Shown here piece after piece: positions 25,925-30,769 of a stretch of 35,851 nt of DNA. Every line of letters starts with the position of its first letter. The first letter of the stretch is position 1. The position numbers were made by a program, and so were the translations under genes. The notes under the pieces were generated by a model, which was not told where the DNA came from, did not search any database, and saw only the letters and a program-made list of their open reading frames with translations. The stretch is from a virus, in the UHGV virus genome UHGV-0135983. One strand, 5' to 3'.

Positions 25925-27331
25925 TTAAAATGCATCGGTATTGAATTTCTCAGAGTATTTACGGGGTTGTTTCCGGGGTTTCGCGGCCTCCAGTTGGATA
26001 CGTGTTTTCTCTTTGCCAACATGCTGATCCATTGACAGAAAGTGTCCGTTTTTAAATTCCTGATAAATAATTGCTCCTGCGGCGCTGAAGCGGCTTTTAC
26101 CCAGGATAATTTCAGCGACGCCAGCCGCCGGGCTTTCCGGGTTGTAAACCTCATCGCGGTACAGAAACATGATGCTGTCGGCGTCCTGCTCAATGGATCC
26201 GGAATCACGCAGGTCTGACATGACCGGGCGACGCTGAGCCGCAGGGCGGGAATCGACGGCGCGGGAAAGCTGGCTAAGCGCGAACGTCGGCGTATGCAGG
26301 CGCATAGCCATAGTTTTTAGGTTTCGGGATATGTGGGCGATCGCAAGGTCGTTACGCTCTGCCTTCGGTTTTTTAATCAGGCCAACGTAATCGACAACGA
26401 TCATCGCCAGATGCGGATACCGGCGCTTATGCGTTTCGGCAACGGCGCGGATTTGCTCAATCGTCAGATCGGTAGCATCAACGATCCAGATATCGCGCCC
26501 GTTCATGGTCTCCATGGCCGCTGTAAAGCGCGCCCAGTCCTCGTCCTGCATATCGAGGGGATTACGCAGGCGTGACACTGACATGTTTCCAGAACCCGCC
26601 AGAGAGCGTTCTACGATTTGCGCAGCGGCCATTTCCATGCTGAATATCAACGCGCCACCGCCGGCAGCGGTAACACCATCGACAATCTTCAGCGCAAATT
26701 CTGTTTTACCCATACCCGGACGCCCAGCGACGACAATCAAATCCTGCAGGTTAATTCCGCCGGTCGCATCGTCCAGTTCCTCGATCCCGGTTTTCAGGTT
26801 TCGGGTGCCCTCTTCGCCGTCCATGCGCTTCTGCATGGTTTCCATGTACACCGGCAATAATTCGCTCATGTGTACCGGCTGCACGTCGCCAGTGTCGCCG
26901 GTCATGTCCAGCAGCTGCGCAACGGCAGTTTCGACAACCTGATCGCGCTGTTCCTGGTTTATCGCATCACGAATACCATCCGCACCATCCTGCAGTAATT
27001 GCGCGATGGTTCTGCTTCGCCAGGCCTTAACCATTTTTTTGGCGTAGCCTTTGAGATTGACAATCGATGTCGGGAATTTGCAAATATCGGCGAGATTGGC
27101 CAGCGTCCCCTGTCCGCCAATGGCTTCGCTAATGTACATCATGTCAATTAAGCCGCCGCTCAAGGCCTGCGCTTTGATCACACCGTAAATCTGCCTGTAG
27201 TATGCGACGCTGAAAGCTTCGCTCGGAGTGCTGGCAATCACATCAAAGGCGTCTGGCGTGGCGCCACCGTTCATCAGGCAGCCAAGAACCAGACATTCCA
27301 GCTCCTGAGTGGAATACATCATCTGCATCAT
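25925..27331 (-). CDS. replicative DNA helicase (DnaB family)
   Basis: 468 aa; Walker A GRPGMGKTEFALK; DnaB-like C-terminal blocks; overlaps initiator stop. Confidence 0.85.
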   Translation of the reverse strand: MMQMMYSTQELECLVLGCLMNGGATPDAFDVIASTPSEAFSVAYYRQIYGVIKAQALSGGLIDMMYISEAIGGQGTLANLADICKFPTSIVNLKGYAKKMVKAWRSRTIAQLLQDGADGIRDAINQEQRDQVVETAVAQLLDMTGDTGDVQPVHMSELLPVYMETMQKRMDGEEGTRNLKTGIEELDDATGGINLQDLIVVAGRPGMGKTEFALKIVDGVTAAGGGALIFSMEMAAAQIVERSLAGSGNMSVSRLRNPLDMQDEDWARFTAAMETMNGRDIWIVDATDLTIEQIRAVAETHKRRYPHLAMIVVDYVGLIKKPKAERNDLAIAHISRNLKTMAMRLHTPTFALSQLSRAVDSRPAAQRRPVMSDLRDSGSIEQDADSIMFLYRDEVYNPESPAAGVAEIILGKSRFSAAGAIIYQEFKNGHFLSMDQHVGKEKTRIQLEAAKPRKQPRKYSEKFNTDAF

Positions 27332-28317
27332 AAAGCGCCCTCCCTGGTCTTACGCAATGTCTCTGGTTTCATCAGATAGTCAAAGCTGGCGCGCCATCCG
27401 CCATTTTCACCAAAGTAAAAATCGGAGGCGTCAGCGCGGAATTTTTCGAAATAGCCCAGAAATGCGCCCGTGGTTTTGTTTTTCATATGGGCGGCCAGAC
27501 GGGTGATCATCCGGCGGCGGTCTGTGTCCAGTTCAGCAGCAGGCAGAACGTCAGCAAAAATTTCGTTGTAGCCGTTCATAACGGCTTCCGGATCAATATC
27601 GGTTTCGGTCACCGCCCATGCTTCAGCGTCAGCGAGATAACCATCAAAGCGGTTTACCCGGCAGATGTTCGCTGGCTTCGGCAGGCTATCGCCACGGCGG
27701 CGCCATGTGGCCAGCACCCAGCGGATAACTAACTGCAATTCGTCCAGGGTGTACCCTTCCCGGGTGGTGGTCGGCGTCAGCATCATCACAAACGGTTTCA
27801 GGTCACGGCAGCGGGTACCGGTTTGCTCGTTGTAAAATTCCAGCGCTTTTTTAGCATCAGAATTAATTTTTTCATCGCCTTCCCCCGTCTGGGGGTTAGG
27901 GGGATCTTTAGGTTCTATGACTGGTTCAAAAGAGTGACTGGTTCTGGTGCCGCCACACGGCATAGGGGCTATGCTTTTTGGCGGCATACCTGTGCTTTCT
28001 GACGGCATAGGGGCTATGCTTTTTGGCGGCATAGGGTTATCAAGTTTCATACAGTACAAATTCGACGCGTTACCCTTCCCGTTTTTTACGCCCGGGCGAT
28101 TTTCTTTCACCAGCAGGCCCATGGAAATTAACGCATCGATATGGTCACGCACCGCGCTTTTGCTGCACTCGCAGTGATCCGCAATATGTTTGTAAGACGG
28201 CCAGCATTCGCCGTAATCATTGGCGTTATCAGCCAGTTTGATCAGCACCAGTTTTCGAATCGGGTTTCCGGTCTTGATTGCCATTGCTTTGGCCATAAGC
28301 GTCATACTCATAGTCAA
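27328..28317 (-). CDS. replication initiation protein (HTH N-terminus, lambda O-like role)
   Basis: 329 aa; N-terminal HTH-like region; internal peptide repeat PMPPKSIAPMP x2 coinciding with DNA iterons; conserved phage replication C-terminal region. Confidence 0.7.
   Translation of the reverse strand: MTMSMTLMAKAMAIKTGNPIRKLVLIKLADNANDYGECWPSYKHIADHCECSKSAVRDHIDALISMGLLVKENRPGVKNGKGNASNLYCMKLDNPMPPKSIAPMPSESTGMPPKSIAPMPCGGTRTSHSFEPVIEPKDPPNPQTGEGDEKINSDAKKALEFYNEQTGTRCRDLKPFVMMLTPTTTREGYTLDELQLVIRWVLATWRRRGDSLPKPANICRVNRFDGYLADAEAWAVTETDIDPEAVMNGYNEIFADVLPAAELDTDRRRMITRLAAHMKNKTTGAFLGYFEKFRADASDFYFGENGGWRASFDYLMKPETLRKTREGAL
27958..28037. repeat. iteron-like direct repeats inside the initiator gene (candidate ori)
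   Basis: CGGCATA core at 27958, 27982, 28003, 28027 (21-24 bp spacing); two ~31-bp units CGGCATAGGGGCTATGCTTTTTGGCGGCATA. Confidence 0.6.
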
Positions 28318-28535
28318 ATCCCCAGCGAGTCAGCCAACTGACGGCAGGCGATTTCGTATTCTTTCTGGGTGAGTCCCGCTTCCTGCAGGTCTGCCTTGCG
28401 CAGTTCATAGCGTTCCCAGATTGTCAGCGCAGTAGCGCGACGCTCTTCGAAAATCGATTCGATATCTTCCATCGGGACTTGTACCCCGTTCCGGCGAAAC
28501 CCATTCCGCCAGGTGATGCGGTCTTGTGTTCTCAT
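28314..28535 (-). CDS. hypothetical small protein
   Basis: 73 aa from MRTQDRITWRNGF; ATG directly preceded by CCGAGGAAAGACCA; the longer 162-aa ORF to 28802 would overlap the YdaT-like gene. Confidence 0.5.
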   Translation of the reverse strand: MRTQDRITWRNGFRRNGVQVPMEDIESIFEERRATALTIWERYELRKADLQEAGLTQKEYEIACRQLADSLGI

Positions 28536-28555: not shown

Positions 28556-29002
28556 TTAAACGCTGGTCAGGCGCTGTGTTTCTCGCATAGCTTGCAATGC
28601 TCTGGCGACTTGCTGCGGCCCGTCTCTGGCGTCGAGTAACAACGCGATAATCGCCGCTGCAAACTCGCGAATGGCCACACAAATTAAATACTGGGTGGAC
28701 ATACCCAAGCGCGCGTAACGTTCTGCCGGCAGCGCCGCTTCCATCGCTTTGACCAGCGCCAGAGTTTTGGCTCTCGCGGCTTTGGTCTCGCCTCGCAACC
28801 AACGAAAAATTTGTTGGCGGTTATTGTTGATTGCCCGCCAGTCGGCGTTTCCATCTGCATCTTCGATCTGGTGCAGCTTCAGCGAACCGGTATTACCACC
28901 AAGACGAAACCACATGCGGCTTATCTCGATAGCAACCAGCTCCTGCCCGCTTTCCGCTGCCCAGTTAAAGATCTCTCGTTTAAGTTCTTCGAGGTATTCC
29001 AC
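28556..29002 (-). CDS. YdaT-like protein (CII-position regulator of Rac-type switch)
   Basis: 148 aa; QQIFRWLRGETKAARAK and overall pattern resemble Rac YdaT as recalled; follows the Cro-like gene. Confidence 0.6.
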   Translation of the reverse strand: MEYLEELKREIFNWAAESGQELVAIEISRMWFRLGGNTGSLKLHQIEDADGNADWRAINNNRQQIFRWLRGETKAARAKTLALVKAMEAALPAERYARLGMSTQYLICVAIREFAAAIIALLLDARDGPQQVARALQAMRETQRLTSV

Positions 29003-29064: not shown

Positions 29065-29262
29065 TTATGCTTTAGACGTGTTTTGCTCTTCGTAAAAAGT
29101 AGGGTCGTATTTCAAGGCGCCTGCAGTTACATGCTCAAGTCGCGCAGCTCGCTTTTCAGGAACAACAGCACCCCAGCGGGTTACAGCGACTTGAGAGATA
29201 CCTAATGCACGCGCAACAGCGGTTTTAGTTCCAAAAAATCTGATAACAGTTTCGGTCTTCAT
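29065..29262 (-). CDS. Cro/YdaS-like HTH regulator
   Basis: 65 aa; HTH AVARALGISQVAVTRW; AGGAG RBS; divergent from repressor gene. Confidence 0.7.
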   Translation of the reverse strand: MKTETVIRFFGTKTAVARALGISQVAVTRWGAVVPEKRAARLEHVTAGALKYDPTFYEEQNTSKA

Positions 29263-29330
29263 AGTTTCCTCTCCTAACGTCAGTTAGGAACATAAATACT
29301 AACGAAAGTTATGTCAAGTTAACTTATATT
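29263..29330. promoter_or_regulatory. immunity switch region: operator palindromes and divergent promoters
   Basis: Palindromes TAACGTCAGTTA (29276..29287), TAACGAAAGTTA (29300..29311), AAGTTAACTT (29316..29325); - strand TTGACA (29312..29317) 17 nt from TATGTT (29289..29294); + strand TATATT (29325..29330) just before the repressor start. Confidence 0.6.
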
Positions 29331-29744
29331 ATGGACATGAAAAAATTGACCTTTAACGATCGCATTACATCGAGACGGAAAGAGCTTGGCTTAACCCAAC
29401 AGCAGCTCGCCGATGCCGTTGGCATATCTGGCGTAAGCGTCTACAAGTGGGAAGCAGGTATTAACACCCCAAAAGGGCAAAATCTGTTTTCTCTCGCTGA
29501 GGCTCTTCGTTGCTCTCCGACATGGTTACTTAACGGAACCGATAGCGATGAACCGTTGAAGGCGGAAGACCTTTTACCTCGGTTAGATGATCGCCAAAAG
29601 CTATTGCTTGATCTTTTTGACTCCCTACCTGAATCAGAAAAAGATAGACACATCAATGAGTTGAAAGATAAAGTTGACGGATTCCAGCGATTGTTTGATG
29701 AGTTACTTTTGGTAAAAAAGAAAAAAAACACTCCAAAAAAATAA
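29331..29744 (+). CDS. CI/RacR-like repressor (HTH_XRE, no S24 peptidase domain)
   Basis: 137 aa; HTH LGLTQQQLADAVGISGVSVYKWEAG; possibly leaderless from the ATG at 29337. Confidence 0.75.
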   Translation: MDMKKLTFNDRITSRRKELGLTQQQLADAVGISGVSVYKWEAGINTPKGQNLFSLAEALRCSPTWLLNGTDSDEPLKAEDLLPRLDDRQKLLLDLFDSLPESEKDRHINELKDKVDGFQRLFDELLLVKKKKNTPKK

Positions 29745-29750
29745 ATTAAA

Positions 29751-29780
29751 GGCAATGTTTTCAATGCATTGCCTTTTTTT
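29751..29780 (+). terminator. intrinsic terminator after repressor gene
   Basis: GGCAATG...CATTGCC hairpin followed by TTTTTTT. Confidence 0.6.
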
Positions 29781-29793
29781 ACACCTCAAATAT

Positions 29794-30320: not shown

Positions 30321-30426
30321 TTGTAATCCCTTTTGCTGTTGTTGGAATGGCAAAGGTAGCACGACCGGGCGTGTTGAAAAATCCCGGAACTGAATTCTTC
30401 GGGTCGCCGACAGTACGATGACATGC

Positions 30427-30769
30427 GGGAAAGACCGCAACGAACATCCATTGCTGTGTGTAGTCTTGGCCGGGCGCCCCGGGCATTTTTTTAACACAGT
30501 AACGATTTATGCGACCCTTCAGTGAAAACTGAAGCCCTCGAAAAGAGGGACCCCGTGAGGAAAGACCAGTGAGCCTGACCAGCTCTGGCGCCGGGAAAGA
30601 CCGGGAGGAAAGACCAATGACCTACGGGCATGACCAGCCCTGACAGCCGGGAAAGACCGGCAACCTTTAGATGGCAAAAGGCCCGCACAAGGCGGGCCAG
30701 TTACCCCGAACGGTGACCAAACCATTCGGACTTATCACAAGCGACCAAGCTTGTGATGAGGAAAGACCA
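30427..30769 (+). repeat. cluster of six GGAAAGACC motifs in apparently non-coding DNA
   Basis: GAGGAAAGACCA at 30557, 30605, 30758 (each followed by GTG/ATG and a short in-frame ORF); GGGAAAGACC at 30427, 30593, 30649; 22-bp inverted repeat TCACAAGC-N6-GCTTGTGA at 30735..30756. Confidence 0.6.
30463..30490 (+). terminator. putative intrinsic terminator
   Basis: GC-rich hairpin CCGGGCGCCCCGGG followed by T7 run. Confidence 0.5.

Follow-up and report, generated by a model that had tools for sequence, protein, structure and literature searches.

A dyad-symmetric iteron array inside the gene for an HTH_36-type phage replication initiator is a likely prophage origin of replication

Results

The virus genome UHGV-0135983, a stretch of 35,851 nucleotides that we analysed in full and refer to as the window, carries a minus-strand replication initiator gene (27328..28317) encoding 329 aa when read from the TTG at 28317. 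Its product matched Pfam HTH_36 at residues 20–69 (E 3.7e-12) and PHROG 428, 'replication initiation protein' (E 2e-76), and the middle of the gene is occupied by a cluster of short, regularly spaced repeats. A preliminary description of this DNA had reported four CGGCATA-cored repeats at 21–24 bp spacing inside an initiator coding sequence, and both the repeats and the identity of the surrounding open reading frame (ORF) held up under closer analysis. On the evidence set out below, drawn from sequence comparison, we consider it likely that the four repeats are iterons bound by the gene's own initiator and that, together with the adjacent DNA, they form the prophage origin of replication.

On the plus strand the CGGCATA cores begin at 27958, 27982, 28003 and 28027, giving spacings of 24, 21 and 24 bp, and all four fall within the minus-strand initiator ORF. 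The heptamer occurs 13 times on the two strands of the entire 35.8-kb window, against 6.05 copies expected, so that four same-strand copies within 76 bp represent clustering far beyond chance (p ~1e-6, a Poisson estimate corrected for window position). Plus-strand positions 27957–28037 read ACGGCATAGGGGCTATGCTTTTTGGCGGCATA cctgtgctttctg ACGGCATAGGGGCTATGCTTTTTGGCGGCATA ggg, and a repeat finder returned a perfect 32-nt duplicate (27957–27988 = 28002–28033) with a 63% degenerate copy in between, as well as the palindrome GCATAG-GGG-CTATGC within the array. The encoded portion of the initiator product is the stretch ...NPMPPKSIAPMPSESTGMPPKSIAPMPCGG..., in which the duplicated peptide previously given as PMPPKSIAPMP is present in slightly shorter form: the exact repeat is the 10-residue MPPKSIAPMP, its second copy being preceded by G, not P.

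The repeat unit was defined by iterating a position matrix over 49 distinct arrays comprising 226 units, using 80 fetched IMG/VR loci with N-domains 77–98% identical. In gene sense, the consensus is the 19-mer T R T G C C R n C A R A A A G C A Y A, a unit with dyad symmetry TRTGC-N9-GCAYA (TATGCC-N-GCATA in the window) in which positions T1, T3, G4, C6, C16 and A17 are essentially invariant. The separation of half-sites within a unit is constant and the gap between units varies (21–25 bp from start to start), as does copy number, with four units in 32 arrays, five in 4 and six in 13. In the window, the repeats resolve into four minus-strand 19-bp dyads about two helical turns apart, spanning 27946–28033 between the winged helix-turn-helix (wHTH) domain (residues 1–93) and the C-terminal domain. 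Iterons 1 (28015..28033) and 3 (27970..27988) are both TATGCCGCCAAAAAGCATA, each with a position weight matrix (PWM) score of 29.4; iteron 2 (27991..28009) is TATGCCGTCAGAAAGCACA and scores 31.5; iteron 4 (27946..27964), TATGCCGTGTGGCGGCACC, scores 19.3 and is the most degenerate unit, abutting the conserved element described below and itself conserved in relatives. The extent of 27958–28037 first assigned to the array thus captured all four cores and needed correction at one end, since the real unit is the 19-bp dyad and the fourth of these reaches 12 bp below 27958. No further position on either strand of the window scored 10 or more on the matrix, except where the palindromic unit 2 is read in reverse; because the matrix was trained on these sites, only this lack of matches elsewhere is informative. 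Exact-pattern scans of GTDB representative genomes did not find the exact iteron array.

Nucleotide diversity at the three codon positions (pi1/pi2/pi3), calculated over 43 distinct collinear sequences, was 0.09/0.05/0.40 in the wHTH-coding part of the gene, the pattern of ordinary protein-level constraint. In the iteron array the corresponding values were 0.14/0.10/0.06, and at the iteron core positions 0.011/0.0/0.004. A sliding analysis of 35 full-length collinear genes placed a valley of third-position diversity (0.00–0.11) at codons ~91–140, corresponding to ~27898–28047 in the window, against 0.13–0.51 in the rest of the gene. Within the array, encoded residues vary (S to D, I or N; I to T or R) with the third-position base unchanged; one AGC codon, for example, is replaced by AAC, ATC, GGC or GAC, so that S alternates with N, I, G and D, and the third base, C16 of the unit, stays constant. 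The 13 six-copy arrays extend this pattern across reading frames, with one unit in frame 0, one in frame 1 and the others in frame 2, such that one DNA motif encodes PVPSKSIA at one site and CAVKKHS at another; they are a clean natural case of a DNA site overriding coding frame. IMG/VR loci L066–L083 (array at ~1760–1900) carry six-copy arrays in three frames, with peptides such as ...IAPCAVKKHSPMP....

Because third-position diversity collapses over the array, residues change at fixed third bases and the motif is kept in three frames, the constraint on the repeats lies on the DNA rather than on the encoded peptide. The alternative is that the repeats arose as a slippage or duplication by-product in a proline-rich flexible linker, with any selection directed at the PMPPKSIAPMP-like peptide and the DNA itself functionless. 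The 32-nt duplicate is perfect in the window, the encoded segment is rich in P, S and G and variable in length among relatives, and a low-confidence structure model predicts it as coil, all of which would suit a linker of this kind. However, the drop in pi3 from 0.40 in the wHTH domain to 0.06 in the array is the reverse of protein-level constraint, residues vary where third bases are fixed, and the motif persists in three frames with differing peptides, has dyad symmetry and covaries with the initiator's recognition helix. We therefore regard a functionless by-product as extremely improbable. A peptide-only repeat was ruled out by the codon-position diversity together with the conservation of the motif across frames.

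The dyads also vary in step with the protein that would read them. For this comparison the loci were supplemented with a further 120 contigs from an exact-pattern scan for the conserved 37-bp element, or anchor, that adjoins the array. In the window, residues 1–93 of the initiator, encoded by 28039..28317 on the minus strand, make up an N-terminal winged-helix DNA-binding domain with the putative recognition helix SKSAVRDHIDAL. Across the family the first half of this domain is nearly invariant, and variation falls in the predicted recognition-helix segment (residues ~50–65) and in the wing. Among 103 distinct helix/array pairs, all 66 arrays linked to a CS[KR][ST]AV[RK]x helix were of the TRTGCC..GCAYA type, and all 24 linked to an ISKRSVM[NL] helix were of the GTGCA-N5-TGCAC type found in SfV orf39. 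At least five minor helix classes each had a dyad of their own: the IGRSTVK/VSRSTVKS class was paired with GGGCAG-N3-CTGCCC, and the arrays differed again in the IDRSTVR, ISRRSVIN, MSR[KT]TAI and ISERSVQN classes. Dyad type thus follows the recognition helix, as expected if each initiator's own winged helix reads the repeats, and this covariation points to the initiator itself as the binder.

A role unconnected with the initiator would require the conserved zone to be bound by another protein of phage or host, to be a hot spot of recombination, or to hold an antisense gene or an mRNA structure. The anchor next to the array clearly behaves as a mosaic junction, an antisense ORF (27947–28177, plus strand) spans the array in the window, and the dyads could in principle form hairpins. 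Yet stop codons interrupt all three antisense frames in 101 of 113 distinct loci, which rules out an overlapping antisense gene at 27947–28177. RNA or cruciform pairing was likewise ruled out, as changes at dyad positions 2 and 18 do not compensate each other (A together with C is the most frequent combination, in 103 of 220 units) and there was no Rfam match. Given in addition that array type covaries with the recognition helix, we judge a non-initiator role to be very unlikely.

Directly after the iterons, in gene sense, lies the invariant anchor (27911..27947, minus strand), a 37-bp sequence reading CCAGAACCAGTCACTCTTTTGAACCAGTCATAGAACC and encoding the peptide RTSHSFEPVIEP, in which GAACCAGTCA occurs twice, 17 bp apart. 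The anchor is 97% identical across dozens of phages whose flanking sequences do not align, among them SfV, ST64B, cdtI, mEp460, Stx2a and Stx2c phages and a Vibrio phage, and no fewer than 120 IMG/VR contigs contain it. Of 5426 complete E. coli genomes, 833 matched the initiator gene somewhere, most of them at the 37-bp anchor only. Its synonymous sites are as frozen as those of the iteron cores (pi3 0.07, with a rare AGA codon in use) and are identical between enteric, Vibrio and Aeromonas phages, although a few lineages (L043, L044 and L047) have diverged at ~7 of the 37 positions. Upstream of the anchor we found at least six iteron types and downstream at least six unrelated C-terminal modules of 111–206 aa, which pair with different partners: a DnaB helicase, a primase-helicase or a DnaC-like protein. 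Because variable iteron types meet unrelated C-terminal modules at this point, the anchor is a mosaic junction between an origin-recognition module and a C-terminal module.

The anchor occupies the position of the AT-rich tract in the P22 origin, and origin function, recombination or a peptide motif may each be the reason for which it is kept. Tentatively, it could serve a whole family of phage origins as a functional DNA element, acting in duplex opening or helicase entry, or else a 'linker' in the sense of Susskind and Botstein, kept for homologous exchange that reassorts N-domains and their iterons with helicase-recruitment modules. The literature searched contained no mention of the anchor or its peptide.

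Beyond the anchor, a C5..C5..G5 palindrome together with a conserved GATC spans 27882..27906 (gene sense CCCCCTAACCCCCAGACGGGGG), with the palindrome at 27882–27903 and the GATC at 27903–27906. DNA alignment with positions 1900–2075 of the P22 locus showed that the rep_origin annotated in P22 gene 18 has a homologous palindrome at its right end. Relatives retain the GATC despite a variable preceding codon (K/I/T/N/E).

Two AT-rich patches flank this conserved zone. The promoter-proximal side of the array (28037..28064) has ~29% GC over 28 bp and encodes the end of the wHTH domain; the most AT-rich patch of the gene (27830..27876, ~28% GC), situated in the half that resembles P22 gp18, is a candidate for the unwinding element. 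This patch includes the least stable 40-mer of the gene (27830–27869, 28% GC), with a free energy (dG) of -47.3 against a window mean of -56.5 (standard deviation 4.7). The immediate flanks of the array are moderately AT-rich only, with 40-mers of 38–42% GC and a value of 42% for the anchor 40-mer (27900–27939). In a set of 106 distinct loci with the anchor, the array is consistently bordered by two stability minima, with the least stable 30-mer in the upstream flank in 73 loci and in the anchor in 12; no consistent AT-rich tract follows the anchor in these loci. The claim that the iterons are followed by a moderately AT-rich stretch, by which 28037–28064 was probably intended, therefore needs qualifying: AT-richness is found on both sides of the array, and its strength is only modest. 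The AT-rich element is weak and was the weakest part of the earlier claim, and more than one stretch is a candidate for the site of melting.

Iterons inside the initiator gene are familiar from lambda O, P22 18 and L 18, each of which contains its own (PMC8022706). Those of lambda are imperfect inverted repeats, 18–19 bp long, to which an AT-rich tract is joined (PMC3349717, PMC7466680), and orilambda comprises four 18-bp iterons and a 38-bp AT-rich tract within O (PMC3349717). The present array resembles this arrangement in having four ~19-bp dyads with A-rich centres, in phase and about two helical turns apart; in lying mid-gene, in the segment that joins a DNA-binding N-domain to the C-domain; in being downstream of a pR-like promoter; and in varying in copy number among relatives, from four to six in this family as from four in lambda to six in Stx phages (PMC7466680, PMC3349717). 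It differs in its iteron sequence, which is unrelated; in its downstream partner, a DnaB-type helicase where lambda has a P-type loader; and in the invariant stretch of ~40% GC that adjoins the array in place of a strongly AT-rich tract. The initiator itself also differs from O: its N-domain is of the HTH_36 family and gave no match to Phage_rep_O (PF04492), on which P22 gp18 scored 6.9e-38 in the same search. Homology of the N-domain to lambda O or P22 gp18 is unsupported, and the earlier likening of this locus to a lambda-type 'ori within O' stands as an analogy of arrangement, borne out by the in-gene dyads, the DNA-level constraint and the helix covariation, and fails as a statement of O-family membership.

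The opposite end of the protein tells a different story. Over its last 93 aa the initiator shares 39% identity with P22 gp18 (BLASTP, E 4e-18), and the corresponding C-terminal domain (residues 239–329, encoded by 27331..27603 on the minus strand) is presumed to recruit the helicase. As in P22, where the DnaB-type helicase is gene 12, the initiator gene is followed by a gene for a DnaB-type helicase; the iterons lie inside the initiator gene in both (PMC8022706), and the rep_origin annotated inside P22 gene 18 is at the same position and ends at the shared C5..C5..G5 palindrome. In contrast, gp18 has a Phage_rep_O N-domain and iterons resembling (A/G)ATCGGTAAAAC, and P22 has an AT-rich tract where the window has the invariant anchor. 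The arrangement is thus lambda-like and the right half of the module P22-like, with an origin-recognition half of a different domain family.

Close parallels are also found in the HTH_36-type genes annotated 'replication protein / primosomal protein I / O' in SfV (orf39), ST64B, Stx2 phages Eru5/6/8/11/13 and temperate phages of Klebsiella and Vibrio. Their N-domains are 60–79% identical to that of the window initiator, and they share the wHTH, the dyad array and the invariant anchor, with array type again tracking the recognition helix; they differ in having other iteron specificities, such as GTGCA-N5-TGCAC in SfV, and other C-terminal modules and partners (primase-helicase or DnaC-like). 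Outside phages, iteron plasmids such as pAES7, pMARC3 and pMOS2 of Paracoccus combine an HTH_36-type Rep with 18–19-bp iteron-like repeats (PMC3832669); their predicted oriV lies upstream of rep and not inside it. Only ~36 phage-sized records in a plasmid collection carry the N-domain, which says nothing on plasmid-type maintenance.

The genes around the initiator place it in a recognizable context. A cI-like repressor gene (29331–29744) is divergent from the operon, and the initiator gene is placed between a cI/cro/YdaT control region and the helicase gene. A pR-like promoter upstream of cro (29289..29317, minus strand; TTGACA-17-TATGTT) matches the consensus at 10 of 12 positions and is identified by consensus match only. 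It is followed on the minus strand by cro (29065–29262; Pfam P22_Cro), a YdaT/CII-like gene (28556–29002; Pfam YdaT_toxin; PHROG 163, 'CII-like transcriptional activator'), a small ORF (28314–28535; phrog_2465) for a 73-aa protein of unknown function, the initiator gene and the DnaB-type replicative helicase gene (25925..27331; Pfam DnaB_C, E 7e-71, with a DnaB N-domain; PHROG 19). This minus-strand gene set is a lambdoid early-right operon. The start of the helicase gene overlaps the initiator stop codon (27328–27331), and the overlapping gene ends suggest translational coupling along the operon. Since homologues begin MSM-LM-KAM, the true start of the initiator is probably the ATG at 28311, which closely follows the small ORF's stop codon and would give MSMTLMAKAM. 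A PDB sequence search with the N-domain returned weak matches only, to winged helices of the GntR/FadR type and to the DnaD N-domain, and a single-sequence AlphaFold model of the initiator was too poor for use (mean pLDDT, the predicted local distance difference test score, of 39).

Several observations concern the wider setting of the module. YdaT-family and phrog_2465 genes between cro and the initiator recall the layout of some non-lambdoid Stx-phage replication regions, Eru8 and Eru11 (PMC8951638). The nearest deposited relative of the replication module, at 90% nucleotide identity, is OM816834.1, recorded as 'Stenotrophomonas phage vB_SmeS_BUCT708', a label at odds with the enterobacterial, Vibrio and Aeromonas phages in which module, iterons and anchor are otherwise met; in that record the phrog_2465 ORF is labelled 'adenylate cyclase', which looks like an annotation artefact. 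Outside the replication module, the window has almost no nucleotide similarity to deposited phages, with best matches covering 5% of the query. Positions 1–25000 hold late and structural genes, most of them minus-strand, and no tRNA genes. Sub-threshold Rfam matches at 30388–30494 (RprA, 32.6 bits against a gathering threshold of 70) and 29702–29784 (STnc240, 27.5 bits against 55) are most likely due to chance.

Discussion

Evidence for cognate initiator sites does not alone show initiation, and the repeats could in principle bind the initiator and act in regulation, by autoregulation, as a transcriptional roadblock, or through titration or handcuffing, with replication starting elsewhere. The weakness of the adjacent AT-rich element is compatible with such a role, and plasmid-borne iteron arrays of lambda can compete and thereby inhibit replication (PMC3349717). 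Against it, the window contains no second motif cluster, the array within the gene serves as the origin in all relatives of this gene arrangement that have been studied (lambda, P22 and Stx phages; PMC8022706, PMC7466680), and the P22-type right-hand palindrome is present. We therefore consider a purely regulatory function unlikely.

Our favoured interpretation, that the array and its adjoining DNA form the origin, has to be weighed against several contrary observations. No strongly AT-rich tract directly adjoins the array, unlike in lambda and P22, and the patch with 28% GC lies ~70 bp away, is only ~2 standard deviations from the window mean and is not sequence-constrained (pi3 of 0.21–0.34 at 27830–27876). 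The N-domain has no significant sequence relationship to the N-domain of the lambda O / P22 gp18 kind (hhalign probability 6.8% against that of gp18). Neither a DnaA box nor an IHF consensus was found within 27700–28400, which, along with the intragenic position of the array, also sets the locus apart from the oriV of iteron plasmids. The diversity statistics were drawn from related sequences without phylogenetic correction, and the literature searched, including PMC8951638, contained no description of HTH_36 phage-initiator origins.

With these points in mind, we propose a mechanism modelled on lambda and P22. Transcription from the pR-like promoter would cross the origin and allow expression of the initiator and the helicase along with cro and the YdaT/CII-like protein. 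Initiator dimers could then fill the four in-phase, A-rich-centred sites through their HTH_36 winged helices, producing a bent nucleoprotein complex. A nearby, less stable stretch would melt, either the 37-bp anchor or one of the two AT-rich patches, and the P22-gp18-like C-terminal domain of the initiator would bring in the phage DnaB-type helicase.

An origin inside the initiator gene is the textbook arrangement, and in this respect the finding is confirmatory. What the analysis provides is a sequence-level definition of a likely origin, an iteron consensus and a set of specificity classes for a widespread family of HTH_36 initiators that many enterobacterial prophages carry, with several Stx-phage replication types among them. 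This definition should be useful for annotating prophages, for predicting replication incompatibility or cross-activation between co-resident prophages, and for designing replication assays. The anchor is the more novel side finding and the one most worth following up: if functional, it would be either a conserved site of unwinding or helicase entry, or one of the rare concrete cases of a conserved linker through which phage genomes exchange modules.

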